NCBI GenBank assembly: GCA_963721715.1
Contig: CAVRKI010000004.1
Location: 1,354,500-1,418,499 of the forward strand
Source of the DNA: an uncultured Acidobacteriota bacterium
GTDB taxonomy: Bacteria > Acidobacteriota > Vicinamibacteria > Vicinamibacterales > UBA2999
Length of the DNA stretch: 64,000 bases
Reading direction: 5' to 3'
The notes under the pieces are model-generated. The model did not search any database and was not told where the DNA came from. It was given only the letters and a program-made list of their open reading frames with translations. The translations under genes were made by a program, and so were the position numbers. Positions 7,116-57,700 of this stretch are shown here, one piece after another. Position 1 is the stretch's first letter. Each line of letters begins with the position of its first letter.

Positions 7116-7135
7116 CTCGCATCCATTCGTAAAGA

Positions 7136-8840: not shown

Positions 8841-8843
8841 TCC

Positions 8844-31264: not shown

Positions 31265-31445
31265 TTTCGTACCAGGAAAAATATTTACTCCGATCAGGCA
31301 GAACCGTCAAACCACCTTCGCGCCACGCCGATCCGCCTGCACCTCCCGAAGACCAGCGCGCGTCATACCCATAGATTCGGGAATTGCGGGTCCCTTGAGG
31401 TCCCACCGACACACACGGTCCCTCCCGAGGCCAAGGAGACACTGA

Positions 31446-31938
31446 ATGAAGGCACTGAAGACTCTCATGTTCGGCGCGGCGGTTGCGGCTCTCACCCTTT
31501 CCGCCGGCACGGTGACCCGCGCCCAGGGCAGCGACATCGTCGCCACGGCCGTGGCCGCCGGCCAGTTCAAGACCCTCGCGGCGGCGCTGCAGGCGGCCGG
31601 GCTGGTCGAGACGCTGAAGGGCGCTGGCCCGTTCACGGTGTTCGCGCCGACTGACGAGGCGTTCGCCAAGCTGCCGAAGGGCACCGTCGAGGACCTGCTG
31701 AAGCCCGAGAACAAGGCCAAGCTGACCGCCATCCTCACCTACCACGTGGTCCCGGGCAAGGTGATGGCCGCCGACGTCGTCAAGGTGAAGGAAGCCAAGA
31801 CCGTGCAGGGCGGCTCGATCAAGGTGATCGGCCATGGGCGGCAAGGTCATGGTCGACAACGCGAACGTCGTGAAGACCGACATCGCGGCCTCGAATGGCG
31901 TCATTCACGTGATCGACAGCGTCCTCATGCCGAAGTAA
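31446..31938 (+). CDS. Fasciclin (FAS1, MPT70-like) exported protein; +1 frameshift near 31827
   Basis: [22 protein letters not shown]; the C-terminal [16 protein letters not shown] lies in the next frame. Confidence 0.9.
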
Positions 31939-31995
31939 GGGCGACCGGACGCGGGGGACATTCATCCGCATCTCTTTCATCCCTCGCGCCGGCAG

Positions 31996-32040
31996 GCGGG
32001 AGCCGGGCTGGTATACAGCCCCGCTCCCGCTAATTCTTTG
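31996..32040 (+). terminator. Probable intrinsic terminator after the fasciclin gene
   Basis: GCGGGAGC-CGGGCTG-loop-CAGCCCC-GCTCCCGC then TAATTCTTT. Confidence 0.5.
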
Positions 32041-32056
32041 CACTAGAATTCCTGCC

Positions 32057-33148
32057 ATGCCGGTCGCCGCCGCCCCCGTCCTCTACCGAACTCAGCCGCG
32101 CACGCGAGGCGCTGGACCAGTGGGTCCGCGACCTGATGCAGTGGCATTTCAGCCCGGAGACCGGCGCCCCGTTCTGGCTCGAGTGGGCGGCGAAGGCCGG
32201 CTGGGATCCGCGCCGCGAGGTCCTGAGCTACGACGACCTCGACAAGTTCGGCCCGTTCCAGGACGAATGGCTGCGCGGCGGCGATGCCAGGCGCTGGGTG
32301 CCGAAGGGCTATGCCGGCCGCCCGGTGTACGTGTTCGAGACCGGCGGCAGCACCGGCGTGCCCAAGTCGCGCATCAACATCGACGACTTCCGCATCGACT
32401 ACTCCACCTTCAGCGACACGCCTGCCCGAGCAGTTCTTCCCGAAGGGCGCCGACTGGCTCGAGATCGGGCCGAGCGGCCCGCGCCGCCTGCGCCTGGCGA
32501 TCGAGCACCTGGCGCAGCATCGCGGCGGCATCTGTTACATGGTGGACCTCGATCCGCGCTGGGTGATCAAGCTGATCAAGCTGGGCGACATCGAGATGGT
32601 GGAGCTGTACAAGCGCCACGTCATCGACCAGGCGCTGACGCTGCTGAAGGCGCACGACACCATCAAGTGCCTGTTCACCACGCCCAAGCTGCTCGAGGCC
32701 CTGTGCGAGCGCATCTCGCTGAAGAAGGCGGGCATCACCGGCGTCTTCTGCGGCGGCACCGAGATGACGCCCCAGTTCCATCGCTTCGCGGTGGAGGAAC
32801 TGATGGAAGGCGCCTACTTCGCGCCCACCTACGGCAACACGCTGATGGGCCTGGCCGGGCACAAGCCGCCCGAGCCCCGAGGACAACTGGGCGATCATCT
32901 ACTACCCGCCCGCGCCGCGCGCGATGATCGAGGTGGTGGATCCCGACGATGAGACGACGGTGGTCGAGTACGGGGCGACCGGGCGCGTCCGCCTGACCAC
33001 GCTCACGAAGGAGTTCTTCATGCCGCGCTTCCTCGAACGTGACGAGTGCGAGCGCGAGCGCCCGTGCGCGCAGTATCCCTGGGACGGCGTCCGCAACGTC
33101 AGGCCGTTCTCGCGGTTCCAGAAGGCCGTGGTCGAAGGCGTCTACTGA
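32057..33148 (+). CDS. EhpF/GriC-like adenylate-forming enzyme (aryl-carboxylate activation); three +1 frameshifts
   Basis: Stitched from ORFs 32057/32136/32284/32924: LMQWHFSPETGAPFWL, VFETGGSTGVPK, LFTTPKLLE, GGT, PTYGNT, VEYGATGRV, ERD. Confidence 0.78.
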
Positions 33149-34595
33149 TGATCAATCTGCCGATCTTGCGCTGGGGGCGGGCGTACCGCAGCGTCGACGC
33201 CGTGGTGGTGCCGCACTTCCGCACCCGCGAGCCGTTCGTGGCGATGAGCCAGGCCAACGTCGGGCTCATCCGGCGTGACCTGCTGACGCAGCAGGAGGCG
33301 CGCGCGCGGCTGGCGGCGATACCGGTGGCCGAGCTCGTGGCGGCGTCGCATCGCGCCGCCGAGTCGTTCATGCACGACACGCTGCCGCTCGACGAGACCA
33401 GCGGCCACGGCCAGACGCCACAGGACTACGTGGAGCAGGTGACCGCCACCACGGGCATGCCGTGGGCCAGCGTCCGCCGCAACATGGCCAAGGTGCACGG
33501 CGTGCTGAGCCGCGTGGAGGAAGTGCTGGCGGGCCTCACGCGCGGGCTGGATCTCTCGCTGCTCGACGCGGGCATGGGCGAGAACGAGGGCCACCTGCTC
33601 AGCTTCTTCCCGCGCACCGACGCGCTCGGCGTCGTGCTGCCCAGCAACTCGCCCGGCGTCCACTCGCTGTGGGCGCCGGCCATCGTCCTGAAGATGCCGC
33701 TCGTGCTCAAGCCGGGCAGCGCCGAACCGTGGACGCCGTTCCGGATCATCCAGGCCTACATTCGAGGCCGGCGTGCCCGCCGAGGTGTTCAGCTACTACC
33801 CGACCGACCACGCGGGCGGCAACGAGATCCTGCGCTCGTGCGGGCGCGGCATGGTCTTCGGCGACGTCGGCTCGACGAAGCGGTGGGCGCGCGATCCGCG
33901 CGTCGAAGTGCACGGCCCCGGCTACAGCAAGGTCGTGATCGGGCCGGATGCCGCCGACCACTGGCCGGACTACATCGACACCATCGCGGAGTCGATCGCC
34001 AACAACGGCGGCCGCTCGTGCGTGAACGCTTCGGGCGTGTGGGTGACCAGGCACGCGCGACGCGATCGCCGAGGCGCTGGCGGCGCGGCTGGCGGAGGTG
34101 ACGCCACGCGCGTGGGACGATCCGGACGCGGTGCTCGCGCCGTTCGCGGATCCGGCGACCGCGCATCGCATCTCGGCGATGATCGACCAGGACCTGACGC
34201 CGGCCGAGGGCGCCGACGGCCGCCCGGCGCGCGATGTCTCCGCGGCGGTACGCGGAACCAGCCGCGTGGTGAGCGCGCATGGCGGCACCTACCTGCTGCC
34301 CACGGTGGTGCGCTGCGACGCCGACCACGCGCTCGCGAATCGCGAGTTCCTCTTCCCCTTCGCCAGCGTCGTCGAGGTGCCGGCCGAGGCGCTGCCCGCC
34401 GCCCTCGGCTTCTCGCTCGTGGTCACCTGCATCTCGGACGATCCCGCGCTGCGCGCCCGCATGGTGGCCTCGCCTCACGTGGACCGCCTGAACTTCGGCG
34501 CCATCCCCACCACCCGCATCGGCTGGGACCAGCCTCACGAAGGCAACCTGTTCGAGCATCTCTACGCGCGTCGCGCCATCCAAAGACTCGCGTGA
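33148..34595 (+). CDS. Aldehyde-dehydrogenase-fold reductase (EhpG/GriD-like); two +1 frameshifts
   Basis: VLPSNSPGVH, VLKPGSAEP, MVFG, HGPGYSK, catalytic NNGGRSCVNAS, EFLFPFASV; TGATG coupling to the upstream gene. Confidence 0.8.
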
Positions 34596-34602
34596 CGTGA
34601 CT

Positions 34603-34628
34603 CCTTGAACTCTTGAACTGTGAACTCT
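34603..34628. repeat. Short TGAACT tandem repeat
   Basis: CCTTGAACTCTTGAACTGTGAACTCT. Confidence 0.55.
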
Positions 34629-34644
34629 CGCCCCTGACCCCCTG

Positions 34645-35938
34645 ATGCGTCTGCTCCTGCTCTCCGCCGGCGCCGCCTCGATGTATTGCGGCAGCTGCCT
34701 GCGCGACAACGCGCTGGCGGCCGCGCTGATGAAGCGGGGACACGACGTCACCCTGCTGCCGTTCTACACGCCGACCCTGACTCGGACGAAGAGAACGTCA
34801 GCCGCCAGGAGCGCGTGTTCTTCGGCGGCATCAGCGTCTACCTCGAACAGCACCTGTCGCTGTTCCGCCACACACCGGCGATGCTCGATCGGTTGTGGGA
34901 TGCGCCGTGGGTGATCAAGGCGTTCTCGAGCGGTTCCATCGCGGTGGATCCGTCGATGCTGGGCGCGCTCACCGTCTCCACGCTCCAAGGCGAGGACGGC
35001 CGCCAGCGCAAGGAGATCGAGAAGCTGCTGCGACTGGCTGGTCGACGAGCCGCGCCCGGACCTCGTCAATATTCCCTACACCCTGCTGATTTCGCTCGCG
35101 CGGCCGCTGAAGCGCGCCCTGAACGGGGTGCCGGTCGTGGTGACGCTCCAGGGTGAAGACCTGTTCCTCGATGGCCTGCCCGATCCCTTCCGTCGGCAGG
35201 CGCTGGATCTGATTCGCGCCGAAGTGCCGCACGTCGACATGTTCGTGGCGGTCAGCCAGTACTGCGCCGGATCTGATGCAGCGCTACCTGGACATCCCGG
35301 CGGCGAAACTGCGCGTGGTGCCCCTGGGCATCTCGGCGCCGGATGGGCCGGCCGCGCCCCTCGCCCGCGCGCCATTCACCATCGGCTATTTCGCCCGCGT
35401 CGCGCCGGAGAAGGGCCTGCACGTGCTGGCCGAGGCCTATCGCATCCTGCGCCGCGAACGCGGCCTGCCGCCGTCGCGTCTGCGCGCCGCGGGCTTCTGC
35501 GGTCCGGATCAGCAGGCCTACCTGGACGGGGTGCGGCGCGGCCTTCGCGCCGCAGGGCTTGAAGGCGAGTTCGATTACGCGGGGTCGCCGGATCGGCACG
35601 GCAAGTTCGCGTTTCTCCACGAACTGGATGTGTTCTCGGTGCCCAGCCCCTATCGCGAACCAAAGGGGCTCTACCTGCTCGAGGCCATGGCGGCGGGCCT
35701 GCCCGTCGTCGCGCCCGCTCACGGCGCACTGCTGGACGTGGTCCACGCCACTGGGGGCGGACTGCTGGCCGCATCGGCCGAGCCGGCGGCCATCGCCGAT
35801 GCGCTGTTCGAGTTGTGGCTGGACCCGCCGAAGGCCGCGGACCTCGGGCGTCGCGGCCGCGCCAGCGTCACCCGCGACTTCACCGTCACGCGTATGGCCG
35901 AACGGGTGGAAGCGGTTTATCGCGAAGCGATAAGCTGA
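34645..35938 (+). CDS. Glycosyltransferase family 4 (GT-B) with N-terminal CxxC; three frameshifts
   Basis: GAASMYCGSCLRDNALA, TLQGEDLFL, GYFARVAPEKGL, PSPYREPKGLYLLEAMAAGLPVV. Confidence 0.88.
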
Positions 35939-35949
35939 CCCTGACTCCC

Positions 35950-36616
35950 GTGCTCACCCTGTCATCCATCGTCAAGACCTACCCCACGCCCGCGGGACCG
36001 CTGCGCGTGCTCGACCGCGTGGACCTGACGATTGGCACCGGCGAGGCGGCCGTGATTACCGGGCCGTCGGGCTCCGGCAAGAGCACGCTGCTCTACATCG
36101 CCGGCGGCCTCGAGCCGCCGAGTTCCGGCACCGTGGATCTCGACGGGACCAATCCGTATGCGCTGGCTCCCGACGCGCTGGCGAAGTTCCGCAATCATGA
36201 GGTGGGCTTCGTCTTCCAGGATCATTGCCTGCTGCCGCAGCTCACGGTCCTCGACAACGTCCTGGTGCCGACGCTCGTCGGCGAGCCCGATCGCGACGCG
36301 CCCGATCGCGCGCGCGTGCTGCTGACGGCCGTCGGCCTCGAGCCGCGTGCGCATCATCGCCCGGCACAGCTGTCCGGCGGGGAGAAGCAACGCGCCGCCA
36401 TCGCCCGCGCGCTGGTTCGCAGCCCTCGCGCTGCTGCTGTGCGACGAGCCCACCGGCAACCTCGACGCGCAGACGGCGGAGACCGTCGCCGACGTGCTGC
36501 TCCGCCTGCAGGTGCAGCAGCACACCACTCTTCTCGTCGTGACCCACAGTACGGCCCTGGCGGCCCGCTTCGATCGGCGGCTGGCGATGGCCGAAGGCCG
36601 CATCCAGGAGGCGTGA
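35950..36616 (+). CDS. ABC transporter ATP-binding protein (LolD/MacB type); +1 frameshift near 36427
   Basis: GPSGSGKST, GFVFQ, LSGGEKQR; LLCDEPTGNLD and VVTH in the next frame. Confidence 0.92.
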
Positions 36617-36617
36617 C

Positions 36618-39600
36618 GTGTCCATGACGCGCGCGTCGCTGTGGCACTACCGCGCGCTGCACGTGCTGGTCGCGGCCGGCGTCGCGGTGGCGGTGGCCGT
36701 CCTCGCCGGCGCGCTGCTCGTGGGCGTCTCGGTCCGCGCCAGCCTGCGCGATCTGGCCCTGCAGCGCCTTGGCGCCACCGACCTGGCGGTGTCCACGCTC
36801 ACCAGCTTCAGCCAGCGGCTGGGAGGCGGCATGGTCGTGGCCGCGCCGGACACCGTGCGCGCCACCGTGGGCCTGATCGCCGTGCCGGGCACGGTCACGC
36901 ACACCCCTTCCGGCCGCGTCGCCGCGCGCGTGCAGATCTACGGCGTCGACGATGCGTTCTGGGCGTTCCACGGCGCGGCGAACGTGCCGTTGTCGGGACG
37001 CGAGGCGGCGCTCAGCGAGAGCCTGGCCGCCGATCTTGGCGCCGCCGGCGGCGATGCGCCTGGTGCTGCGCGTCAGCGGGCCGTCGGACATCCCGCTCGG
37101 CACGCTGCAGGGGCGCCGGGATGACGGCGGCACCCGCATCCGCGTGACCTTGACCCGGACGCTCGCCGCCGCTCGGCTGGGCGAGTTCTCGCTGGTGCCG
37201 GGACAGGCGCCGGTCCCGGTGGTGTTCGTGCCGCTCAGCCTGCTGCAGCGCGAGCTGACGCTGACCGGTCGCGTCAACACCATCCTCGTGCAACAGACCT
37301 CACGTGAGGGCGCGCCAGACGCCTCGCTCCCACCGGTCGATGCCATCCAGCGCGCGTGGCTGGCCAGTGCCACGCTGCCGGACCACGGCCTGCGGATCCG
37401 CCGCGTGCCGGGCGATCGCGTGATGGCGCTCGAAGGGCTGGGCGGCTACATCAGCCCCGAGATCGGCGAGCGCGTGCTCGAGGCGCTGATTCGCCTGCAA
37501 CGCCCCGGCGTGCCGGCGCTGACCTACGTCGCCAACGGCATCCGGATCGGCGAGCGCGTGACACCCTATTCGACGGTCACCGCCATCGACGTGGACGGCT
37601 ACAGCCGCCTGTCGGTGCCGGCCGGGCCGCCGGCGCCGGGGGCCGACGCGATGAGCGACGGCGACCCGCTGGTCCGTGGCTCGCTGGAGGTCCGCGTCGG
37701 ACGCGGCGGCGTGCGGGTCGGCCGCGTGCAGGTGACGGAAGCCGAACGCCGCGGGCGCGCGCCGGAAAAGGCGCCGACCAAGTCGAGGGCGCCGGATGCG
37801 GACGACCCGCCTCGTGACGGTCCGATCTGGCTGAACGAATGGACCGCCCAGGACCTGGACGCGCGCATTGGCGACACCGTGCACCTGGATTACTTCGTGT
37901 GGACGGACGAGGGCGGCCTGCGAGACGCGCAGCGCGTCGTTCGCGATGCAGGGCGTGCTGCCGATGATGCGCATCGGCGGCGACCGCACGCTCACCCCCG
38001 ACTATCCCGGCATCACCGATGCGCCCGACCTCGGCGCGTGGGACCCGCCCTTCCCGGTCGATCTCTCGAAGGTGCGCCCCCAGGACGAGGCCTACTGGGA
38101 CCAGTGGCGGGGGGCCCCCAAGGCCTTCGTGCCGCTCGACACGGGACAGCGCCTGTGGGGCTCGCGCTTCGGGAACATCTCGTCGATTCGTTTCGCGCTG
38201 CGCGACGCCGACGCGGTGGCCGCGGCCGTGCGGGCGCAGATGAACAGCCAGGTGGTGGTGCGTCCGGTTCGGCAGGAGGCCGTGGCCGCCGCCGAGGGAA
38301 CCACCGATTTCGGCGAGTACTTCCTCTACTTCAGCGCGTTCCTCGTCGCCTCGGCTCTACTGATCGCCTATCTCTTCTTCGCGCTGAGCATCGAGCAACG
38401 CGCTCGCGAGGTCGGATTGCTGGCCGCGGTCGGCTTCACCACACGTCAGGTGCGCCGCGTATTCCTGCGAGAGGCCGTCATCATCACCGCGGCCGGCGTG
38501 GTCGTCGGCGTGGCCGGCGCCGTCGGATACGCGGCGCTGATCATGCACGGCCTGCGCACGTGGTGGGTGGACGCCGTGGGCACGACCGCCCTGACCCTGC
38601 ACGTGGATCCGGCGGCGCTGATCGCGGGAGCGATGGGCGCCAACGCGGCAGCCTTGCTGGCCTTGTGGCTGGGCACGAAGTCGCTGGCGAAGCGCTCGCC
38701 ACGTTCGCTGCTGCTGGGAGCCACGCCAGACCCGCCCACACGCAACACGCGCACCACGGCCGGGCTCGGCATCGCCCTCGCCATCGTCGCCGCGGCGCTG
38801 ATAGCGGCGGCGCGAGGCGGCATGCTCGATGCCACGGGTGGCTTCTTCGGCGCAGGCGGGGCGCTGCTCGTCTCGGGACTGCTGCTCTCGCGCGCGAGGT
38901 TGCTGGCCGGCGCGGATGCCGGCGAGTGTCCGGCGACGCGTCGCCCGCGTGTGGACGCTGGGGCAGAGCCACACGGCGTGGCGTCCGACCCGAACGGTCC
39001 TCACCCTCTCGCTCATCGCGTTCGCCACCTTCGTGCTCGTCAGCGTCGTCGCCTTCCGGCGGGACGGCGCCGGGACGTCGCTCGAGCGAACGGGCGGCAC
39101 CGGCGGGTTCGCCCTGATGGCCGAGGCGGCCGTGCCGTTGATGCACGACCCGAACACGCCCGCAGGCCGCGCGGCGATGGGCCTCGATGCCGGCGGCACA
39201 CTGGACGGCACCCGCGTGACACGGGTGCGACTGCGGCCCGGCGATGAAGCCAGTTGCCTCAGCCTCTATCAGCCGCAGAACCCGCGCATCGTCGGCGTGA
39301 AACCGGCCGACCTGAGCGGGCGCTTCCGGTTCTGCTGATCAGGGCTCCGCACCGGCCGGCACATCACCGTGGACGCTGCTCGAGCAGACGCTGGAGGATG
39401 GCGCCATCCCGGCGATTGCCGACCAGACAACGCTCACCTACGTCTTCCACCTCGCGGTCGGGGACGTGTTCGAGTTCGCACCCGATGGCGTCACGCCCAT
39501 CCGCTTCCGCATCGTCGCGTCGCTGGCCGACAGCGTGCTGCAATCGGAGCTGATCATCGGTGAGTCGCCGTTCGTCCAGCTGTTTCCGCGACAGGAGGGT

Positions 39601-40120
39601 TATCGCGTGTGGTTGGTCGAATCGCCGGAACCGCATGCGGCGGAGGTGGCCGCGTTCCTCGAGGACCGCCTCGCGGACTCTGGTGTCGACGCCGTAGACA
39701 CGCGCGTGCGGCTGGCGTCCTATCATCGCGTGGAGAACACCTATCTCGCGACCTTCCAGGCCCTGGGCGCGCTGGGGCTGCTGCTGGGCACGCTCGGCGT
39801 GGGCGCCGTGCTGGCGCGCAACGTCCTGGAGCGGCAGCGCGAATGGGGCCTGCTGCGGGCGATCGGCTTCGAGCGCCGCCACCTGACGGCGATGGTGCTG
39901 GCCGAGAGCGCGGCGCTGGTCGGCGGGCGGCGTGCTGATCGGCACGATCTCGGCGGCGCTGGCGGTGGCGCCGGCGATTGCCGAACGCGGGCAGGCACTC
40001 CCCTACCTTGCGTTGGCGGGCGTACTCGCGGCGGTCATCATCGCCGGGCTCGCCTCGTCGCTGTTCGCGCTCGCGGTGGCGACGAGGGTGACGGTGGTGG
40101 AGGCGATCAAGAGCGAGTAA
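36618..40120 (+). CDS. Large FtsX/MacB-type ABC permease (about 1160 aa); five +1 frameshifts
   Basis: Stitched from ORFs 36618/36952/37868/38829/39466/39932: GVAVAVAVLAGALLVG, EQRAREVGLLAAVGF, ERQREWGLLRAIGF, VEAIKSE*. Confidence 0.85.
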
Positions 40121-40144
40121 CGGCAACCGGCAGACGGCAGACGG
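40121..40144. repeat. Heptamer repeat CGGCAGA-like
   Basis: CGGCAAC CGGCAGA CGGCAGA CGG. Confidence 0.55.
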
Positions 40145-40198
40145 AAAGGCCTGGTCCGCCGTCGCCGTGGCGAGGGCGGACGAGGGAGGCACGATCGC

Positions 40199-41430
40199 AT
40201 GCGTCGAGCAGTCATCACTACAATCGTGTGCGTCGCGCTCGGAGCCAGCGTTGTGGCGCAGGCGCAGGCACCATCGTGGCCGCAGTGGCGAGGGGCCGCG
40301 CGCGATGGCGTGGCCACGTTCGATGCCCCGCGGACCTGGCCGGCGGCGCTGACGAAGGTGTGGGAGGCGCAGGTCGGCGTCGGCCATTCCTCGCCGGTCA
40401 TCGCCGGCGGCACGGTGGTGGTGCACACGCGCGAGGGCGCCCGCGAGATGGTGCGGGCGTTCGACCTGGTCACCGGTAAACGTCGGTGGCAGGAGGCCTA
40501 CGACGCGCCGTACCAGGTCAACCCCGCGGCTCAGCTCCATGGGCCCGGGCCGAAGTCCACGCCGGCCATCGCCGGCGGCCGCGTCTTCACGCTCGGCATC
40601 AGCGGGGTGCTCTCGGCCTTCGACCTCGAGAGCGGCAAGGTGCTGTGGCGCACGCCGGCCGCGCAGCCGCAGCCGATCTACGGCACCGCCACTTCGCCCA
40701 TCGTCGACGGTGATCGGGTGATCGCGTTCATGGGAGGACACGACAAGGGCGCGTTCACGGCGTTCGAGGCGGCGACGGGCACCGTGCGCTGGCGCTGGAG
40801 CGGCGATGGTCCCGGCTACGCCTCGCCGGTGGTCGCCGAGTTCGGCGGCACCAGGCAGTTCGTCACGCAGTCGCAGAACCGTCTCGTCGGGATCAGCGCC
40901 GCTGACGGCGCGCTGCTGTGGCAGGTGCCGCTGCGCACGAGCTTCGACCAGAACTCGGTGACGCCGCTGGTGGTGAACGGCCTCGTCATCTCGTCCGGCC
41001 TGGAGACGCCGACCATGGCCTATCGGGTGTCGCGCGACCGGCGTCGGGCTGGCAGGCTCAGGAGGCCTGGCGGAACGAGCAGGTGTCGCTGTACATGAGC
41101 TCGCCGGCTGCGACCGGGCAGGCGATCATCGGGCTCTCGCATCGCAATCGCGGGCAGTTCGTGGCGCTCGATCCGGCGACCGGCAAGATGCTGTGGAGCA
41201 CGCGGGGCCGCGAAGGCGACAATGCGTCGATCATCCGCGCCGGCGAGTGGCTGCTGCTCTCGACCACGAACAGCGAGCTCATCATCGCGCGGGCGCTGCC
41301 CGCCCGGCTGGAGGAGGTGAAGCGCTACGCGGTTGCCGACTCCCCCACCTGGGCGCATCCCGCGGTCGCCGGCCGCACGATTGTCGTAAAGGACGCCGAG
41401 CGAGTCATCGTATGGAAGGTGGAGGGCTGA
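40199..41430 (+). CDS. PQQ-binding-like beta-propeller exported protein; frameshift near 41036
   Basis: Signal peptide, WPQWRGAARDG, repeated S/T-P and D..G...W blades; C-terminus in ORF 40918-41430. Confidence 0.88.
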
Positions 41431-41434
41431 CAAC

Positions 41435-42709
41435 GTGCGACGTCTCCTGATGCTGTCACTCGCGGCCGTGATCTCCGGCTCGGCCATGCTGTCTGCGAAC
41501 TGGCCCGCCTGGCGCGGCCCCACCGCCGACGGCGTGAGCCCCGAGACCAACCTGCCGGTTCGCTGGAGCCCCACCGAGAACGTCGCCTGGAAGCTGGCGC
41601 TGCCGCAGTGGAGCGGCGCCACGCCGATCATCTGGGGCGACACCATCTTCCTGAACGTCGCCGAAGCCGATGGCCACAACCTGTCCCTGTGGGCCGTGCG
41701 GCGCACGAGCGGCGAGGTGCTCTGGAAGCGGCACCTCAGCGAGGGCAACCACAAGGAGCGCAAGCAGAACATGTCGTCGCCGTCGCCGGTGACGGACGGC
41801 ACACGGGTCTGGGTCTCGACCGGCACCGGCTTCATCCGCGCCTTCGACTTCGCCGGCAAGGAACTCTGGGTGCGCGACATCCAGAAGGACTACGGGCGCT
41901 TCGGGCTGAACTGGGGCTACGCCAACTCGCCGCTGCTGCTCGAGGGCGACCTGATCGTGCCGGTGCTGCACGGCATGAAGACGGACGACCCGTCCTACCT
42001 GCTGCGCATCGACGGCGCCACCGGGCAGACGAAGTGGAAGGTGGAGCGGCCGAACCGCGCGATTCGCGAGTCGCCCGACGCCTACACCACGCCGGCGCTG
42101 GTGCGCGTGGGCAAGGCCGCCGAGATCGTCATCACCGGCGCGGATGTCGTCACCGGCCACGACCCGGCCACGGGCAAGGAGCTGTGGCGCGCCGACGGGC
42201 TGAATCCGGACAACGATCCCGCCTACCGCATCGTCGCATCGCCGGTGGTGCACGGCGACATCGTGATTGCGCCGAGCCGGGAGCGGCCGATCCTGGCGAT
42301 CCGCGCGGGCGGGCGCGGCGACGTGACCACGTCGCACAAGCTGTGGGAGTTCGGGAACGGGCCCGACGTGCCGACACCGGTCACCGACGGCACCCATCTG
42401 TACGTGATCACCGATCGCGGGGTGGTCTACTGCCTGGATCTGAAGACCGGCAAGACCATCTACGGCCCGCAGCGCCTCGAGCCCGGCACCTACAGCTCGT
42501 CACCGGTGCTGGCCGACGGCAAGATCTACATCGCCAGCGAGGACGGCGTGTTCAGCGTCTTCCGCGCGGGGCCGAAGTTCGAGCTGCTGTCGGCGAACAG
42601 GATGGACGACTACACGCTCAGCTCCGTGGCCATCAAGGACGGACAACTCTTCCTCCGCACCGCCGGCTGGCTGTGGGCGGTGGGCAAGGCTTCAGGCTCC
42701 GGGCTCTAG
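41435..42709 (+). CDS. PQQ-binding-like beta-propeller exported protein
   Basis: Signal peptide, NWPAWRGP, SPSPVTDG, repeated D..TGK..W blades. Confidence 0.92.
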   Translation: MRRLLMLSLAAVISGSAMLSANWPAWRGPTADGVSPETNLPVRWSPTENVAWKLALPQWSGATPIIWGDTIFLNVAEADGHNLSLWAVRRTSGEVLWKRHLSEGNHKERKQNMSSPSPVTDGTRVWVSTGTGFIRAFDFAGKELWVRDIQKDYGRFGLNWGYANSPLLLEGDLIVPVLHGMKTDDPSYLLRIDGATGQTKWKVERPNRAIRESPDAYTTPALVRVGKAAEIVITGADVVTGHDPATGKELWRADGLNPDNDPAYRIVASPVVHGDIVIAPSRERPILAIRAGGRGDVTTSHKLWEFGNGPDVPTPVTDGTHLYVITDRGVVYCLDLKTGKTIYGPQRLEPGTYSSSPVLADGKIYIASEDGVFSVFRAGPKFELLSANRMDDYTLSSVAIKDGQLFLRTAGWLWAVGKASGSGL

Positions 42710-43155
42710 GCTTGCGGCCGGAAGTAGAGCACCATCCCCGCGCCGGCCGCGGCCATCAGCACGCCGGCGAAGAACAGCGGGTTGACCGCGGCCTTCGGCG
42801 GATGCAGGGCCATGGTCGTCAGCACGTTGATCACGGGTGCGCCGCCGAACACGATCGGCATCACGTAAGTGGGCAGCCCGCCGGCACGGAACGCAAAGAT
42901 GATGCAGACGGCGCCGATCGCGCCCAGCGCGCCCGCCATCGTCGCGGTCATGGTGCCGGTCGCATTGAAGTTGCGGAGTTCGCCCTGCGACGACAGGGCG
43001 ATGACGGGGACGACGACGCCGATCAGGAAGTAGGCGACACCGACGCAGAGCAGGGCTCGCAGGGGATTACCCAGCTCGACCTGCCCCTTGTGCAGCGACG
43101 CACCATACAGTCCCCACGACAACGCCGCCCCGAACGCGAGCATGATCCACGACAT
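42706..43155 (-). CDS. Small DMT/EamA-like membrane protein
   Basis: About 5 TM helices, SWGLYG..LHKGQ, VMPIVFGGAPVIN. Confidence 0.65.
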   Translation of the reverse strand: MSWIMLAFGAALSWGLYGASLHKGQVELGNPLRALLCVGVAYFLIGVVVPVIALSSQGELRNFNATGTMTATMAGALGAIGAVCIIFAFRAGGLPTYVMPIVFGGAPVINVLTTMALHPPKAAVNPLFFAGVLMAAAGAGMVLYFRPQA

Positions 43156-43307
43156 GAACAATCCTTTCAGAAGGCCTGGGCCATCCGCGACTCGCGAGTA
43201 GCGCCACGCGGAATACTGCCACGGTGACGGCGTGGCCGTCTTGCGGAAAGTTCAGGCGCCTCCGCTCGTCGCATCGGCTGAGCCGTGCGACGGCTCGCTC
43301 ATCGCCC

Positions 43308-46300
43308 TCAAAACCGGAGCCGCACGCCAATCTGCATCTGCCTCGCCGACGTCACGGTGTTGCGGATGCGTCCGAAGTTGCCCACCACCTGCTCGCCGTC
43401 GGCCGCCCCCGCGAACGCGATCAGGTTCGGGATGCCGAAGTTGGCGCGGTTGAACAGGTTGAACACCTCGATGCGCAGTTCGAGTCGGCTGTCCGAGCCG
43501 GCGATCGGCAGGCGGCTGTCCTTCGAGAACGCGAGGTCCACGGTGCGCAGATCCGGCCCGGTCAGGTCGCCGCGCCCGGTGTTGCCGAAGGTGCCTGCGG
43601 GCTGCAGCGCGAACGCCTGCGGATTGAACCATTGCGCCGGATCGCCGTTCACCGCAGTGTCTGGCCCGAAGCCGGGGGCGTAGCTCGCGCGGTCGCGGCC
43701 GATCCCGGGGCCCAGCGACGGTTGCCACTGTGAGCGCGAGCGGTTGTTCTGCACGAACACCGTCAGCGGGTAGCCGCTCCGCAGCGTCGCGATTCCGGCC
43801 ACGCGCCAGCCGGAGAGCAGCACCCCGCTCACACCGGTCAGGTCGCGTCCCCACGGCAGGTCCCACGTCCCGTTCAGCACCCAGTTGTGCTCGGTGTTGA
43901 AGTCCGATGGCCCGCGGTTGTAGTCGGGGATGTATTCAGGAAAGGCCGAGGTGGTGCCGTTGGTCGCGTCCGAAAAAAACGTGGACGCCTGCGTGGTGTC
44001 TTCGGAGTCGGCCCACGTGTAGGACGACTGGAACGACACGCCGTTCGACCAGCGGCGGCGCAGATCGACGATGAACGCGCGGTACCACGAGTCGCCGTCC
44101 GAGCTCTTCAACTCGATCGTCGTCCACGCCGTGTTCTGACGCGGCGTGCCTACGGGGAAGAACGGCAGGCCATCCGCGCCTGTCACCGGCATGGCGGTAT
44201 TGACGTCGTTGCTGCGCATCAAGTGCATCCCACGCGACCCGGCATAGCCGAGCGTGAGCGCGGTGCTGCCCCAGAACTCCCGCTGCAGATTGACGTTCCA
44301 GACGTGCACGGACGGCGTTTCCACGTCCCATTGCACCGGCCGGATCGACAGCCCCGAGGCACGTTCGAACGGCGGGTTCGGAAACGTCGGCGCCTGGTAG
44401 ACCACGCGAGGCGTCTGCGGGGGGTTGGTCACCGTGACGATCAGGTTCTGCGAGCTGTTGGTGGCGTAGTAGAGACCGTACCCGCCGCGGATCGAAGTGC
44501 TGCCATCACCCAGCACATCCCACGCCGCCCCTACCCGCGGAGAAAAATTGTTGTAATCGGCACCCTCGTACAACCGACCGGTGGTGGCGGTGCGATCCGT
44601 CAGGTTGACGAGCGCGGAATCACGGCCCTCCTGATCGATGGGCATCGTCATGAACTCCCACCGAAGGCCGGCATTCAGCGTCACCCGTGGATGGACGCGA
44701 AACTCGTCCTGCACGTACATCCCCGCCAGCCAGAACGGCCAGTCGCGCACGAAGGTCGCCTCCGGCGTCAGCCCGATGAAGCTGGTGGCGCGGTTCTCCA
44801 TGAACGCCCGCAGGTTCGCGAAGGCGTAGGTGCCCAGACTGAACGTCGGGTTCACCATGTCCTGCTGGTAGTGCTCGGCCAGCCCGCCGAACTTGACGAG
44901 GTGCCGCCCCCGGTTCCAGGCGGAATCGGCCTGCAGGCTGAACACCTGCTGCAGGAAGCGCACATCGGCGGAGCTCTGGGTGCCGAAGCGCTGGAGGCCG
45001 CCGACATCGATGTTGCCGATGTACTCGCGGCCGGGCACGAACGGCGGCAGCGCGGTGTTGGCTTCGACGGCCTGCCCCACGCGCGTCCGGCTGTAGCCGA
45101 CGCGGAACGTGCTGAACAGATTCGATGACAGCGCCTGCCGGTACTCGCCGGTGAAGAACTGGTTGCGCGACACGAAGTCGCGCGGGAACTGCGGGTAGTC
45201 CAGCGGCAGCCGCTGGCTCGCATCGTCGAAGGTGTAGCGCGCGAACAGCTGCGCGCCGGGCGCCACGTTGTAGTCGATGCGGCCCTGCAGGAAATCCTGA
45301 TCGAGCGTCTGGTCCACCTGGAAGCTGTAGAGCGCGGTGCCGTCGCCGAGGTTGGCGCCGTTCGGCATCGGGTACTCGTTCAGGTATGGCGCGACCGCGG
45401 GATTGACACCCACGTTGAGGAACGTCCCTGGCACGGCGGGGTTGGGCAGCAGCCCCTGACGCGCGTTGGCGTCGGGCACGCTGGAGGTGATGGTCCGTCC
45501 CAGGTTCTCGCGCAGGCCTTCGTAGCCAAGGAAGTAGAACAGTTTGTCCTGCCGCACCGGCCCGCCGACCGTGCCACCGAACTGGTTGCGGGTGAACGGC
45601 GGCTGATCCCCGACGTCGAAGTAGTTCTTCGCATCGAGCGCGTCATTGCGGTGGTACTCGAACGCGGTGCCGCGGACGGCGTTGGTCCCGGCTTTCGTCA
45701 ACACGTTGACCTGGCCGCCGGCCATGCGGCCGAACTCCGCGCTGTAGGCGTTGGTCTCGACCCGGAACTCCTGCACGGTATCCATCCCCAGCGCCGTCCC
45801 GGCCGCGCTCCCCGCCGGCCCGTTCGTCATGTCGTTCAGCAGCGTGCCGTCCAGCAGGTAGACGTTGGCGCGCGGGTCCTGGCCATTGACGCTCATCCCG
45901 AGCCCGTGCGCCACCACCGAGCCGCCATCGCGATGCGGGAACGGCACCACACCGGGCTGGAGATAGGCCAGGTCGGTGTAGTTGCGGCCGTTCAGCGGCA
46001 GTTGCTCGATCGCCCGAGCGTCCACGAGGTAGCTGAGCTCCCCGGCGCGCGTGTTCACCGTCGGTGTGTCCGCGGTGACGGTCAGCGCTTCGCTGAGGCC
46101 ACCCACTTCCATCGTGATGTCCACCGCCACGTTCTCGGCGATGGTCAGCGTGATGCCGCGGCGCACGAGCGGGCGAAATCCGGACAGCTCCGCGCGCAGT
46201 TCGTAATCGCCAGCCGGCAGCGACGGCAGCGCGTAGCGCCCCGCCGTATCCGACGTGGTCTGGCGCTCGAACCCGGTGTCGACCCGCCGGGCAGTGACCA

Positions 46301-46433
46301 CCACGCCGGGCAGCACGGCCCCGCTGGCGTCCTGCACCCTCCCGGAAAGATTGGCCGTGGTCTGGGCCGCCGCGGTCAACGGGGCGGCGATCAGGAGCGT
46401 AAGAAGGAGGAACCGGATTCGCGACGTCATCAT
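43308..46433 (-). CDS. TonB-dependent receptor with carboxypeptidase-regulatory-like N-domain (Oar-like)
   Basis: SGRVQDASGAVLPG, LPLNGRNY, QEFRVETNAYSAEFG, RNQFGG, NNFSPRVG, RQMQIGVRLRF. Confidence 0.95.
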   Translation of the reverse strand: MMTSRIRFLLLTLLIAAPLTAAAQTTANLSGRVQDASGAVLPGVVVTARRVDTGFERQTTSDTAGRYALPSLPAGDYELRAELSGFRPLVRRGITLTIAENVAVDITMEVGGLSEALTVTADTPTVNTRAGELSYLVDARAIEQLPLNGRNYTDLAYLQPGVVPFPHRDGGSVVAHGLGMSVNGQDPRANVYLLDGTLLNDMTNGPAGSAAGTALGMDTVQEFRVETNAYSAEFGRMAGGQVNVLTKAGTNAVRGTAFEYHRNDALDAKNYFDVGDQPPFTRNQFGGTVGGPVRQDKLFYFLGYEGLRENLGRTITSSVPDANARQGLLPNPAVPGTFLNVGVNPAVAPYLNEYPMPNGANLGDGTALYSFQVDQTLDQDFLQGRIDYNVAPGAQLFARYTFDDASQRLPLDYPQFPRDFVSRNQFFTGEYRQALSSNLFSTFRVGYSRTRVGQAVEANTALPPFVPGREYIGNIDVGGLQRFGTQSSADVRFLQQVFSLQADSAWNRGRHLVKFGGLAEHYQQDMVNPTFSLGTYAFANLRAFMENRATSFIGLTPEATFVRDWPFWLAGMYVQDEFRVHPRVTLNAGLRWEFMTMPIDQEGRDSALVNLTDRTATTGRLYEGADYNNFSPRVGAAWDVLGDGSTSIRGGYGLYYATNSSQNLIVTVTNPPQTPRVVYQAPTFPNPPFERASGLSIRPVQWDVETPSVHVWNVNLQREFWGSTALTLGYAGSRGMHLMRSNDVNTAMPVTGADGLPFFPVGTPRQNTAWTTIELKSSDGDSWYRAFIVDLRRRWSNGVSFQSSYTWADSEDTTQASTFFSDATNGTTSAFPEYIPDYNRGPSDFNTEHNWVLNGTWDLPWGRDLTGVSGVLLSGWRVAGIATLRSGYPLTVFVQNNRSRSQWQPSLGPGIGRDRASYAPGFGPDTAVNGDPAQWFNPQAFALQPAGTFGNTGRGDLTGPDLRTVDLAFSKDSRLPIAGSDSRLELRIEVFNLFNRANFGIPNLIAFAGAADGEQVVGNFGRIRNTVTSARQMQIGVRLRF

Positions 46434-46517
46434 GATGGGTCCTCGGTATACTACGCGCGACTCGCGGGGGTTGTTGCCTCCTGCCCTCAAGGTTTCTGCC
46501 ATTTGTCATCAACCGTG

Positions 46518-46552: not shown

Positions 46553-46566
46553 TTCCCTGAGGTGAC

Positions 46567-47883
46567 ATGCCCCGCCTGACTCCCTTGCAGTGGCTCATCT
46601 GCGCCATCGCGGCGCTCGGCTTCGCGTTCGACATCTACGAAGTGCTGATGGCGCCGCTCGTTGTCGGCCCGGCCATCGGCGAGCTCACCGGCTTCAAGCC
46701 GGGAACGCCCGATTTCAACTTCTGGGTCGGCATGTTCTTCTGGGTGCCGGCCCTGGTCGGCGGTGCCTTCGGCCTGCTGGGCGGCTATCTGACGGACCGC
46801 TTCGGGCGCAGGCGCGTGCTGGTCTGGAGCATCCTGCTCTACGCGTTCTCGGCGATGGCGGCCGGCTACTCGACCAGCATCACCATGCTGCTCGTGCTGC
46901 GCTCCACCACCTACATCGGCGTCTTCGTCGAGTTCGTGGCGGCGGTCGCCTGGGTGGCGGAAATCTTCGACGACCCCAGGCAGCGTGAAGCCGCGCTCGG
47001 CTACACGCAGGCGTTCTCGTCGATCGGCGGCCTGATGGTCACCGGTGCCTACGCCATCGCGGTCACCTACTCACAGAGCTTCCCGGAAATTGCCGGCGGC
47101 CACTCACCCTGGCGCTACACGCTGATTTCGGGCGTCATCCCCGCGCTGCCGCTGATCATCATCCGTCCGTTCCTGCCGGAGTCGCCCGCCTGGCAGGCGA
47201 AGAAGGCTGCGGGCACGCTCAAGCGGCCGTCGCTGGCCGCGATCTTCACGCCGGAACTGCGGCGCACGACCATCGTCACCACCATCATGTTCGCGTGTGC
47301 CTACGGCGCCGCCTTCGGCGCCATCCAGCAGATGCCCCGCATCGTGCCCGGGCTCCCGGAGGTGCGGACGATGGCCCCGCCGCAGCAACAGCAGACGGCG
47401 GCGGGTGTGCAGGCCTATCAGGAAGTCGGCGGGCTGGTCGGACGTTTCGCGCTCGCCTACCTGGCGCTGCGCATCGTCTCGCGCCGGAAGCTGGTTCGCC
47501 TGTTCCAGGTGCCGGGCCTGGTGATCGTGCCGCTGGTGTTCGCCTACGCCGCCAACACCAGCCTGGACCTCACCCGATGGGGCATGTTCCTGGCGGGCTT
47601 TTTCACCGTGGCGCAATTCAGCTTCTGGGGGAACTACCTGCCGCGGGTCTATCCGACGCACCTCCGCGGCACCGGCGAAGGCTTCGCCGCCAACATCGGC
47701 GGCCGCATGCTCGGCACCGGCTTCGCCTTCATCACCACACAGCTGGTGAACGTGATGCCCGGGGCCACCCCCCAGATGAAGCTGGCCTACTCGGCGGCCG
47801 GGGTGGCCGCCTTCGTTTACGCCGCCGGGTTGGTCTGCTCGTACTTTCTGCCCGAGCCTCAAAGCGCTGAGTTGCCCGAGTAG
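46567..47883 (+). CDS. MFS transporter
   Basis: GFAFDIYE, GGYLTDRFGRRRVL, PESP, YPTHLRGTG; about 12 TM. Confidence 0.92.
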   Translation: MPRLTPLQWLICAIAALGFAFDIYEVLMAPLVVGPAIGELTGFKPGTPDFNFWVGMFFWVPALVGGAFGLLGGYLTDRFGRRRVLVWSILLYAFSAMAAGYSTSITMLLVLRSTTYIGVFVEFVAAVAWVAEIFDDPRQREAALGYTQAFSSIGGLMVTGAYAIAVTYSQSFPEIAGGHSPWRYTLISGVIPALPLIIIRPFLPESPAWQAKKAAGTLKRPSLAAIFTPELRRTTIVTTIMFACAYGAAFGAIQQMPRIVPGLPEVRTMAPPQQQQTAAGVQAYQEVGGLVGRFALAYLALRIVSRRKLVRLFQVPGLVIVPLVFAYAANTSLDLTRWGMFLAGFFTVAQFSFWGNYLPRVYPTHLRGTGEGFAANIGGRMLGTGFAFITTQLVNVMPGATPQMKLAYSAAGVAAFVYAAGLVCSYFLPEPQSAELPE

Positions 47884-53995: not shown

Positions 53996-55039
53996 CTACC
54001 GCGTGATGAACACATCCACCCGCAACCCGACCGGAAGCGTCGTGCCTGGGTCGAGTTCCACCAGCGTCTCCAGTACCTTGGTGTCCATTTTCTCTGCGGG
54101 CTCGTCGGTCCGGAGGTTCTTGCGGCCCAGCATCCCGCCGATGCGCACCACGCGTCCCGGAAAACGTGTGTCGCCGTAAGCCCCGGCGGTGGCCCAGGCG
54201 GCCTGTCCCACCTTGAGCGCCGCCACGTCACGCTCGTCCACATCCACTCGCACGCGGAGCGTACGCGTGTCCGCGACCGTGACCACCGCGGACGCCGGGC
54301 CGTCGAGCGAGACGCTTTCGCCGGACTGTTTGTGGCGCCTCAGCACCACGCCCGAGATCGGTGATCGCACGACCGTCTTGTTCACCAGTGCCCGGGCTTC
54401 GGCCACGCTGGCACGCGCCATGGCCACGGCGGCATCCGCTCGGGCGAGCTCGTCGGCCCGGGCCACGCTGTCGACGGTCGCCAGGCGTTCGGCGGTCTCG
54501 TTCTTCCGCGCCTGTGCGACGCGCCAGTCGCGCTCGGCGCGGTCCAGATCGTCCCGTGCGATGACGCCGGACTCGAACAGGCGCCGCCGCCGCTCGATCT
54601 CGATGCGGGCGTGTTCGAGGCTGGCGTCGGCCTGCGCTGCGACGGCGCCGGCCTCGCGGCGTTCCTCGGGGCGGGCGCCGTTCGTCAGGCGGAGGCGCTC
54701 GGCTTCCGCCATCGAGAGCCGCGCCTCGGCCGAGAGCAGCCGCGCCTCGTAATCGTCACGCACGAGCCGAGCCATGACCTGCCCTTCAGAGACGACGTCA
54801 CCATCGTCGACCAGCACGGCGGCGAGCTTCCCGGAAAGTTCCGGCGAGACGTCAATCTCCTCGGAGATCGGCTCCACCCGTCCAGGCCCCGCGATCAGCG
54901 CGGCCGCGGCACTCGCGGGCGGCGCTGGAGCCCCGAGCCCGGGGGGCGACACACCCAGTCCACCGGCCGCGCGTACGACCACGACGCTGACCAGCCCCAT
55001 CGCCACCAAACCTGTCATCGTCCACTGTATGCGGGACAT
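53996..55039 (-). CDS. HlyD/DevB-like membrane fusion protein
   Basis: GPGRVEP, SGKLAAVLVDDGDVV, long helical hairpin, VRSPISGVVL. Confidence 0.9.
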   Translation of the reverse strand: MSRIQWTMTGLVAMGLVSVVVVRAAGGLGVSPPGLGAPAPPASAAAALIAGPGRVEPISEEIDVSPELSGKLAAVLVDDGDVVSEGQVMARLVRDDYEARLLSAEARLSMAEAERLRLTNGARPEERREAGAVAAQADASLEHARIEIERRRRLFESGVIARDDLDRAERDWRVAQARKNETAERLATVDSVARADELARADAAVAMARASVAEARALVNKTVVRSPISGVVLRRHKQSGESVSLDGPASAVVTVADTRTLRVRVDVDERDVAALKVGQAAWATAGAYGDTRFPGRVVRIGGMLGRKNLRTDEPAEKMDTKVLETLVELDPGTTLPVGLRVDVFITR

Positions 55040-55058
55040 TCGGGATCCCTTTCGTGAG

Positions 55059-55117
55059 AAGTTCAAAGTTCAAAGTTCCAGCCCAAGACTCAAGACCCAG
55101 GCCCCAGGACCCAAGAC
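55059..55117. repeat. Composite heptamer repeats (AAGTTCA) x3 plus CCCAAGA-like units
   Basis: AAGTTCA AAGTTCA AAGTTCC, then CCCAAGA CTCAAGA CCCAGGC CCCAGGA CCCAAGA. Confidence 0.7.
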
Positions 55118-55124
55118 GCACGTC

Positions 55125-55820: not shown

Positions 55821-55822
55821 CG

Positions 55823-56947: not shown

Positions 56948-56969
56948 GGCGTTTACACAGCTAATAGAC

Positions 56970-56983
56970 GTAACACTGTTAAG
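56970..56983. promoter_or_regulatory. TetR-type operator upstream of the ABC exporter
   Basis: TAACACTGTTAA, matching the reverse strand of the palindrome at 57658. Confidence 0.75.
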
Positions 56984-56994
56984 TTCGGTTCCTG

Positions 56995-57017
56995 AAAAAA
57001 GGCGGCTGGGGCCGCCT
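56995..57017 (-). terminator. Intrinsic terminator downstream of tetR
   Basis: Minus strand AGGCGGC-CCCA-GCCGCC-TTTTTT. Confidence 0.8.
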
Positions 57018-57041
57018 CGTCCGTGTGCGCGGGTCCGGCCG

Positions 57042-57650: not shown

Positions 57651-57657
57651 GGCTCTG

Positions 57658-57700
57658 GTTAACAGTGTTAACTTGACACGACCGCCCGGGCGCTGTCAAG
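57658..57700. promoter_or_regulatory. TetR autoregulatory operator and promoter
   Basis: Palindrome GTTAAC-AGT-GTTAAC 7 nt from the tetR ATG; CTTGACA/TGTCAAG inverted pair gives TTGACA on both strands. Confidence 0.75.

Follow-up and report, generated by a model that had tools for sequence, protein, structure and literature searches.

We identified a cluster of seven co-directional genes at positions 32057-42709 of a 64,000-nucleotide stretch of DNA, hereafter the window, from an uncultured Acidobacteriota bacterium (GenBank assembly GCA_963721715.1, contig CAVRKI010000004.1, positions 1,354,500 to 1,418,499 of the forward strand). On balance, and with confidence only a little beyond even, we read this cluster as a functional operon of a co-inherited Acidobacteriota envelope system that would act by the mechanism proposed below and whose reading frames are broken by assembly errors only. 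Its genes encode, in order, an EhpF-type stand-alone adenylating enzyme (gene 1), an aldehyde dehydrogenase (ALDH)-fold reductase partner (gene 2), a family 4 glycosyltransferase (GT4) with an N-terminal CxxC motif (gene 3), an ATP-binding cassette (ABC) ATPase (gene 4), a duplicated FtsX/MacB-type permease (gene 5), and two exported beta-propellers (genes 6 and 7). The spacing is tight, with a TGATG junction between gene 1 and gene 2 (33146-33150) and other intergenic gaps of 49, ~11, ~1, 78, and 4 nt as measured from the open reading frame ends. An earlier annotation made from the letters of the window (here called the sequence-only reading) had pointed out the co-directional, close-set arrangement and the TGATG coupling, and all of these features are there to be seen. 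The window has a G+C content of ~69% and is part of contig 4; the genome, of 5.97 Mb, is assembled into 7 contigs at 86% completeness.

Intact orthologues from genome G034, which has the same gene order, served as stand-ins for the window genes; the gene 1 query matched the three pieces of the window's gene 1 with 63–77% identity by HMMER and 66–78% by tblastn. The gene 1 orthologue had a convincing phmmer match to EhpF (PDB 3hgu/3l2k; E-value 7e-44), with 33-376 aligned to 20-366, and the PDB search returned EhpF entries only, followed by two marginal matches (E ~0.5). The likeness to EhpF that the sequence-only reading had drawn from motifs was therefore confirmed over the whole length, and gene 1, far from falling outside the EhpF family, encodes a full-length EhpF homologue. 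At 363 residues it is close in size to EhpF (366–369 residues), and the alignment reaches the last residue of EhpF; by its length and by this alignment end, gene 1 has neither the C-terminal subdomain of ANL enzymes nor a carrier domain. The window's gene 1 carries the motifs WHFSPETGAPFWL and ETGGSTGVPK, for which EhpF has counterpart stretches in the alignment, WHFS..TG.PFWL and GG(S/T)TG.PK being common to both, and in the ANL phosphate-binding loop G97, G98, G101, and P103 are invariant among 29 sequences. Against family-level models, the gene 1 orthologue scored 24.7 bits against Pfam AMP-binding (under the cut-off of 29.9), the Protein Atlas gave only generic 'AMP-binding' cluster names for the family, and at E 0.01 the intact orthologues had no match to Pfam LuxE (PF04443) for gene 1 or LuxC (PF05893) for gene 2.

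The gene 2 orthologue passes Pfam Aldedh (41.8 bits, cut-off 23), and its Cys288, which aligns with the ALDH nucleophile in the profile, is invariant in 20 of 20 orthologues. With this match and the catalytic Cys kept, the ALDH-fold partner that had been assigned to gene 1 from the sequence was borne out. At the position of the ALDH general-base Glu (of ELGG) there is instead an equally invariant His252 (20/20). By the established ALDH mechanism, loss of this Glu fits a non-hydrolyzing, reductase-type ALDH, and by that analogy the His of gene 2 would fit an enzyme that does not hydrolyze its thioester. The first 117–180 residues of gene 2 lie outside the best-scoring stretch of every listed PDB match, and this N-terminal region is rich in invariant residues. 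Prediction of the gene 1-gene 2 complex gave an ipSAE of 0.74, the best of three controls reaching 0.01; of 157 solved complexes 116 attain the mark we used for this score, as against 2 of 215 mismatched pairs, counts that hold only roughly here because our complex runs used self-made alignments. At least 88% of the contacts were common to the runs, the predicted local confidence (pLDDT) of the partner was at least 89, and the predicted interface involves gene 2 residues 15-17 and 35-46, which are among the invariant N-terminal residues. The two proteins are thus predicted to bind, and the model supports this binding.

The sequence-only reading had listed a GT4, an ATPase, a large FtsX permease, and two propellers for the rest of the cluster, and Pfam agreed on each, with GT4 domains, ABC_tran, two FtsX matches, and PQQ_2. 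Gene 3 matched Pfam Glycos_transf_1 (5e-22) as well as Glyco_transf_4, its CxxC is invariant in 11 of 11 aligned orthologues, and no NCBIfam equivalog matched it at the equivalog's cut-off. Both FtsX matches fall in gene 5, whose orthologue has ~10 hydrophobic segments and two large loops of ~480 and 245 residues; it scored 25.8 bits against MacB_PCD (under the cut-off of 27), and its weak NCBIfam matches were to DevC, ADOP, MacB, and LolCE, all far under the curated cut-offs. No HlyD-family adaptor gene was present in the families common to at least three of 25 clustered loci fetched from sampled genomes. Elsewhere in the window, on the minus strand (53999-57695), is a classical set of HlyD, ABC ATPase, MacB_PCD/FtsX, and TetR genes with a frame change at ~55825, whereas the double-FtsX machine of the cluster has no adaptor.

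Genes 6 and 7 each have a signal-like hydrophobic N-terminus. A structure model of gene 7 (pLDDT 80; predicted template-modeling score, pTM, 0.82) had as its best PDB folds those of BamB (E 4e-19, TM 0.65–0.78, 16–18% identity). Against the Pfam PQQ (pyrroloquinoline quinone) model PF01011, gene 7 scored 21.7 bits, under the cut-off of 26.7, and the longer frame piece of gene 6 scored 37.4 bits over the last 100 positions of the model only. Thus, of the two signal-peptide PQQ-like propellers proposed from the sequence, the signal-like N-termini and PQQ_2 domains stand, and an identity of gene 7 as a PQQ enzyme is ruled out by its PF01011 score and by its fold, which is nearer to BamB.

Table. 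Features of the cluster and its 5' flank (positions in the window).
Feature	Position	Strand	Details
Terminator-like hairpin, after upstream fasciclin-domain gene	31995..32031	+	-35.1 kcal/mol, z -3.7
TAGAAT hexamer, possible -10 box	32044..32049	+	direct reading of sequence
Gene 1, EhpF-type stand-alone adenylating enzyme, ~363 aa	32057..33148	+	1-nt insertions 32078, 32420, 32875
Gene 2, ALDH-fold reductase partner, ~472 aa	33148..34595	+	start overlaps gene 1 stop; insertions ~33763, 34058
Gene 3, GT4 glycosyltransferase, N-terminal CxxC (MYCGSC)	34645..35938	+	insertions 34783 (2 nt), 35030, 35269
Gene 4, ABC ATPase, start approximate	35950..36616	+	ABC_tran 1.4e-27; frames 1>2; insertion 36429
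Gene 5, duplicated FtsX/MacB-type permease, ~1140 aa	36618..40120	+	insertions 37059, 37921, 38926, 39332, 39925
Gene 6, exported PQQ_2/BamB-like beta-propeller	40199..41430	+	PQQ_2 1.6e-27; frames 2>1; 2-nt insertion 41037
Gene 7, exported BamB-like eight-blade propeller	41435..42709	+	PQQ_2 4e-24; sole unbroken frame

Six of the seven genes have frame changes, as seen both in a frame plot of third-codon-position G+C (GC3) and in tblastn searches with the intact orthologues, in which the frames ran 3>1>2 for gene 1, 1>2>3 for gene 2, 1>2 for gene 3, 1>2 for gene 4, 3>1>2>3>1>2 for gene 5, and 2>1 for gene 6, while gene 7 was whole. When we aligned the window with its two closest relatives (89% and 86% DNA identity), this three-way alignment revealed further breaks in gene 3 beyond the 1>2 change, and showed 15 insertions specific to the window, 13 of 1 nt and 2 of 2 nt, and no window-specific deletions. 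The genes are intact in the high-quality relatives G038, G032, G033, and G034; G012 has two breaks at other positions, and G008 has many breaks of its own. Short-read contigs from Logan omit a letter at, or within 3 nt of, 8 of the 15 insertion sites, with omissions at 32078, 32420, 32875, 33765, 34782/34784, 37057, and 38923 (stretches that these contigs leave uncovered carry no meaning). The sites at 37057 and 38923 are covered by pieces of 150–330 nt with 0–2 other differing letters, and 37921 is spanned by a piece that has a single gap and differs at one other letter. Because the two relatives lack the insertions and the short-read contigs omit letters at or near eight of them, we conclude that the frame breaks of the cluster are assembly insertion errors and that the operon is not decayed.

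That the operon might truly be decayed, with the breaks as real mutations, we considered in view of their number, 15 frame-breaking insertions within 10.6 kb, and of their density, which is above that of the rest of the window in a rough frame map; nevertheless we regard decay as highly improbable. All 15 events are insertions and none a deletion, the matched segments are without in-frame stops, the main matched segments hold 34–78% amino acid identity to the orthologues, and the extra bases at 37057 and 38923 are absent from the nearly identical short-read contigs described above. In addition, the genome is in 7 contigs and yet only 86% complete, and other genes of the window are broken: the frame map showed more same-strand frame changes elsewhere, and AcrB-like pieces occur in two frames (7139-7968), which indicates that there are frame-breaking errors outside the cluster too. 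Programmed frameshifting was rejected as well, the extra bases being absent from the two closest relatives and omitted by short-read contigs at or beside 8 of the 15 sites. The broken genes of this window reflect an assembly artefact, and to take them for gene decay would be a mistake. The AcrB/AcrD-type pieces span 6741-8843 on the minus strand, where Pfam ACR_tran matches in two overlapping stop-to-stop frames with changes at 7156, 7462, and 7968. We also observed CCCTGAT-like tandem repeats in the GT4-ATPase gap of loci L002 and L003, opposite window position 35939, and GGCAGAA tandem units after the permease of L003, opposite position 40119; both are absent from the window.

To describe the distribution of the system we used a phylum sample of 301 Acidobacteriota genomes, the unpublished G086 and G189 among them. 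Gene 1 was found in 81 of these genomes (threshold E 1e-20), the CxxC-GT4 in 86 (1e-60), the double-FtsX permease in 86 (1e-80, which the window's own fragmented permease does not reach), and the gene 7 propeller in 66 (1e-90). The overlaps are extensive: gene 1 occurs with the GT4 in 79 genomes and with the permease in 78, all three occur together in 77, any of the three occurs in 90, and all 66 genomes with gene 7 matches are within these 90. The majority of mismatches come from incomplete genomes or from contig edges, and the parts also co-occur where they lie hundreds of kb apart on one chromosome (G125, G224, G268, and G173). The sequence-only reading had named a lack of conserved synteny in homologues as a finding that would count against it; what we found is that the parts are inherited together, and we regard this co-occurrence as strong evidence of a descriptive kind, not as a test statistic. 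Gene 1 forms one tight group across the phylum, with 62–79% identity in full-length matches, and locus L050 (Vicinamibacterales bacterium) has an identical gene 1. A word-indexed protein search gave at least 8000 gene 1 relatives, the best 120 of which are 77–100% identical, annotated as 'hypothetical' or 'PaaK-like', and, in the cases with a stated taxon, assigned to Acidobacteriota, Pyrinomonadaceae, or Bryobacteraceae. At 50% clustering the family comprises 1547 clusters (E 0.001), and distant homologues with 35–46% identity exist. A single-protein locus scan returned close relatives only, which carried Acidobacteriota labels save for one Gemmatimonadota, one Clostridia, and one 'bacterium'.

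Gene order is conserved in homologues, which the sequence-only reading had made a check on its proposal. Genes 1 and 2 lie side by side in 23 of the 25 fetched loci, and the compact order of the window recurs in six (L009-L012, L014, and L016), while L013 and L021 have the cluster without the GT4. In 42 of the best 80 named loci the sequence continues for at least 9 kb downstream of gene 1; these 42 contain gene 2, next to gene 1, in 41 cases, the GT4 in 41, and the permease in 30, with the exact order gene 1-gene 2-GT4-ATPase-permease in 28 and a propeller directly after the permease in 23. Three loci (L015, L051, and L102) have the arrangement gene 1-GT4-gene 1-gene 2 with two copies of gene 1, which in L015 are 78% and 63% identical to the query. 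Where genes 1 and 2 stand apart from the rest, we noted a gene for a thiamine-diphosphate enzyme directly upstream in L028 and L029, and one for a true PQQ alcohol dehydrogenase (PF01011, 287 bits) directly upstream in L031; both enzymes are linked to aldehyde chemistry.

Other families have a long form of the cluster. It begins with two long propellers, followed by gene 1, gene 2, an iron-containing alcohol dehydrogenase (Fe-ADH), an ACSF4-like propeller, and a HemN-like radical SAM enzyme; next come a TonB-dependent receptor, a flavoenzyme, an SSF symporter, the GT4, a YbgC-type thioesterase, the ATPase, and the permease. Some genomes have the set divided between two loci. The best models for the radical SAM enzyme were ChuW/HutW (196 bits) and HemN (187 bits), both under their cut-offs. 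Four of four flavoenzyme members contain GxGxxG and WxWxIP, and the best model for the flavoenzyme was the CmlS halogenase (197 bits, far under the cut-off). The three extra propellers of the long form have orthologues in the window genome, which lie together ~84 kb past the window end (contig 4, 1502657-1507461, minus strand). There is no gene 1 or gene 2 between these propellers, which are themselves split between frames.

From these gene identities we infer a direction of reaction, a substrate class, an order of steps, and roles for the transporter and propellers. Gene 1, as an ANL enzyme that like EhpF has no C-terminal subdomain, would adenylate a free carboxylic acid, and the acyl group would pass to the conserved Cys of gene 2, which may dock on gene 1 through its family-specific N-terminal region and would use NAD(P)H to reduce this group to an aldehyde. 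Conversion of the aldehyde to an alcohol would fall to the adjacent Fe-ADH in other families, and because this gene adjoins gene 2 in the long form we suggest that the aldehyde may go on to alcohol. The CxxC-GT4 would then add a sugar, and the ABC machine, for which the cluster has one ATPase gene, a permease of two fused FtsX units, and no adaptor, would move or present the product at the periplasmic face, where the dedicated BamB-like propellers would act. Export is suggested here by the type of transporter only. The sequence-only reading had put forward the same order of reduction, glycosylation, and export to propellers, along with the idea of a cofactor, and we retain both as suggestions. 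An aromatic acid substrate seems more likely than a fatty one, because the two studied relatives use aromatic acids and because the long form has aromatic-type tailoring enzymes. A more specific proposal, which we offer as a long shot, is that a small glycosylated aldehyde or alcohol might be handed by an adaptor-less MacB-type machine to its own BamB-like propellers, constituting a new ligand or cofactor system or an envelope glycoconjugate, with methylation, halogenation, and TonB-dependent recapture as additions in the long form.

A number of observations weigh against this account. The high complex score is the confidence of a model and not a measurement. The exact gene order is absent from 14 of the 42 long named loci, the permease is absent within 10 kb in 12 of them, and genomes G033 and G110 have gene 1-gene 2-ATPase-permease with the GT4 elsewhere in the genome. 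The co-occurrence counts overstate the support they give, because kin are not independent, and they take in the two unpublished genomes (G086 and G189). Having no neighboring adaptor or TolC gene, the permease need not be an exporter, and the propeller model, with a fold closest to the scaffold BamB, gives no hint of a ligand. The long form includes import parts (the TonB receptor and SSF symporter) that fit uptake or recycling as well as export. In the window genome, the long-form Fe-ADH, radical SAM enzyme, receptor, flavoenzyme, and symporter had tblastn matches of at most 30% identity only, and the thioesterase had no tblastn match; because the window genome is without orthologues of the tailoring genes, the argument for an aromatic substrate is borrowed from other families. 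Our search of public sequencing runs found none with half of the sampled words (best share 0.12), and it found no RNA run.

A product of another kind, an envelope glycolipid, would be made if a fatty acid freed by the thioesterase were converted to a fatty alcohol and then to an alkyl glycoside, which a MacB/DevC-like ABC machine would put in the outer leaflet or outer membrane; the export of heterocyst glycolipids by DevBCA is an analogue. We think this unlikely. The permease orthologue does weakly match NCBIfam DevC (1.9e-7), a YbgC-type acyl-CoA thioesterase is part of the long form, the long-form flavoenzyme has a further match, to the geranylgeranyl reductase family (139 bits against a cut-off of 158.8), and in one locus (L030) the cluster is followed by a mevalonate diphosphate decarboxylase-like gene. 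However, lipid-synthesis genes are not conserved in the 25 clustered loci, the lack of LuxE and LuxC matches at E 0.01 speaks against fatty acid reduction of that type, and the WxWxIP halogenase motifs and HemN-like enzyme better fit aromatic tailoring. Moreover, the sole characterized relatives of gene 1 use aromatic acids, going by the pertinent excerpt of PMC10179220 and by the place of EhpF in a phenazine cluster.

It is also conceivable, though we doubt it about as much, that the genes share a regulon and form no linear pathway: the GT4 product would be cytoplasmic, as with the small-molecule GT4s BshA and MshA, and the ABC machine would be a mechanotransducer acting on the propellers or on another periplasmic partner instead of exporting the glycoside. 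Such mechanotransducer-type ABC machines include FtsEX and LolCDE. The GT4 orthologue matches the BshA (2.8e-16) and MshA (1.5e-11) models, if far under their cut-offs; the conserved families of the 25 loci include no adaptor or outer-membrane channel gene; the propeller fold matches a scaffold; and GT4, ATPase, and permease remain joined where genes 1 and 2 sit elsewhere. On the other hand, the phyletic patterns of gene 1, GT4, and permease are near-identical, and with the frequent tight packing into one operon a single pathway is simpler. Less probable still, in our estimation, is that the system takes up and converts an environmental acid (e.g., a plant- or humus-derived aromatic), which would be imported, reduced, and glycosylated for detoxification or salvage. 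The long-form TonB-dependent receptor is above the siderophore-receptor cut-off (236 versus 223.5 bits) and is accompanied by the SSF symporter, genes for synthesis of the acid core are not conserved in the clusters, and a major facilitator superfamily (MFS) transporter lies near the cluster in the window and in G034. Yet the window genome has no orthologues of receptor or symporter while the rest is kept, and a GT4, an ABC machine, and dedicated propellers would be unusual for catabolism.

Upstream of the cluster, the hairpin is followed on its 3' side by UAAUUCUUU, and as read from the sequence the hairpin leads into TAATTCTTT; equally stable folds occurred in 2 of 200 shuffles, and the hairpin was not in the output of a simple terminator scan. 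The terminator-like hairpin claimed in the sequence-only reading is thus present as a stable fold. The -10 box claimed at 32044 is present as a TAGAAT, followed by the gene 1 ATG at 32057; because a promoter scan gave no two-hexamer sites in 31300-43400, the claim stands only as a match to a hexamer. The fasciclin-domain gene just upstream (31446-32030, plus strand) has a frame shift at ~31830, and its frame enters an Arg/Gly-rich tail. On the other side, and convergent with the cluster, is a large CarboxypepD_reg and OMP_b-brl_4 TonB-type outer-membrane protein (43311-46505, minus strand); relatives of this protein with ~30% identity adjoin GT4-ATPase-permease in L034, L038, and L042, but the family is abundant and the adjacency may be chance. 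The MFS transporter gene (46561-47880, plus strand) is 68.5% identical to the one directly after the cluster in G034; it is near the cluster in these two genomes only, and could be an accessory to it.

In soil, Acidobacteriota rank with the most abundant bacteria, and to our knowledge very little of their specific biochemistry is known. Read as a functional operon of an envelope system, the cluster represents a gene set that we found in about one in four of the sampled Acidobacteriota genomes and that is co-inherited even when split over the chromosome. The conservation of gene 1 and the joint inheritance of the split set point to one conserved product that would act in the cell envelope. The system also takes the little-studied two-protein carboxylic acid reductases beyond two antibiotic pathways, into a widespread and probably physiological role.

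Our literature search, which mostly did not cover subscription journals, found no paper on this cluster; the EhpF literature it returned included no paper on Acidobacteria, and the literature on the GriC/GriD carboxylic acid reductase was from Streptomyces only. The transport part of the system resembles MacAB-TolC, DevBCA, LolCDE, and FtsEX (type VII) in its FtsX domains, large periplasmic loops, and separate ATPase, but differs in having two FtsX units fused in one ~1140-residue protein and no HlyD-type adaptor among the conserved cluster families. Gene 7 resembles BamB in fold, yet it has no lipobox Cys in its signal-like N-terminus, and its orthologues occur only in those sampled genomes that have the system, so it is not the housekeeping BamB. 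LuxE/LuxC, in which a ~370-residue synthetase that has no carrier domain passes its acyl group to a ~480-residue ALDH-related reductase, follows the same logic as genes 1 and 2, as judged from the sizes and mechanism of the Lux proteins; here, however, neither Pfam family matched, and there is no luciferase and no LuxD.

EhpF of Pantoea (Enterobacter) agglomerans, from the D-alanylgriseoluteic acid pathway, is the sole solved structure that matches gene 1, and EhpF and EhpG sit within a phz-type operon. In the portion of PMC11278526 relevant here, the table of a Proteus phenazine operon has ehpF followed by ehpG, an aldehyde dehydrogenase family protein. No PhzA/B (PF03284) match was found in the window genome (86% complete) with a control that matched nowhere, and its three PhzF-family genes are all far from the cluster; this family also matches 10 of 14 control genomes, E. 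coli and B. subtilis among them. For GriH-type PF01959 there was likewise no match in the window genome, with a control that matched in three genomes. The statement of the sequence-only reading that phenazine and grixazone core genes are missing is hence upheld for the GriH type, whereas for PhzA/B the negative comes with a silent control. In Streptomyces griseus, GriC and GriD form a two-protein carboxylic acid reductase of the grixazone pathway, whose gene pair and order are as in the window and whose substrate is 3-amino-4-hydroxybenzoate from GriI/GriH. According to the excerpt of PMC10179220, which cites Suzuki et al. 2007, GriC forms an acyl-AMP that GriD reduces to the aldehyde, and as far as that excerpt goes there is no counterpart to the GT4, ABC machine, and propellers of the window. 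The GT4-ABC-propeller system is without a characterized counterpart, and the core pair that it surrounds is best supported as a known kind of two-protein carboxylic acid reductase, that of GriC and GriD.

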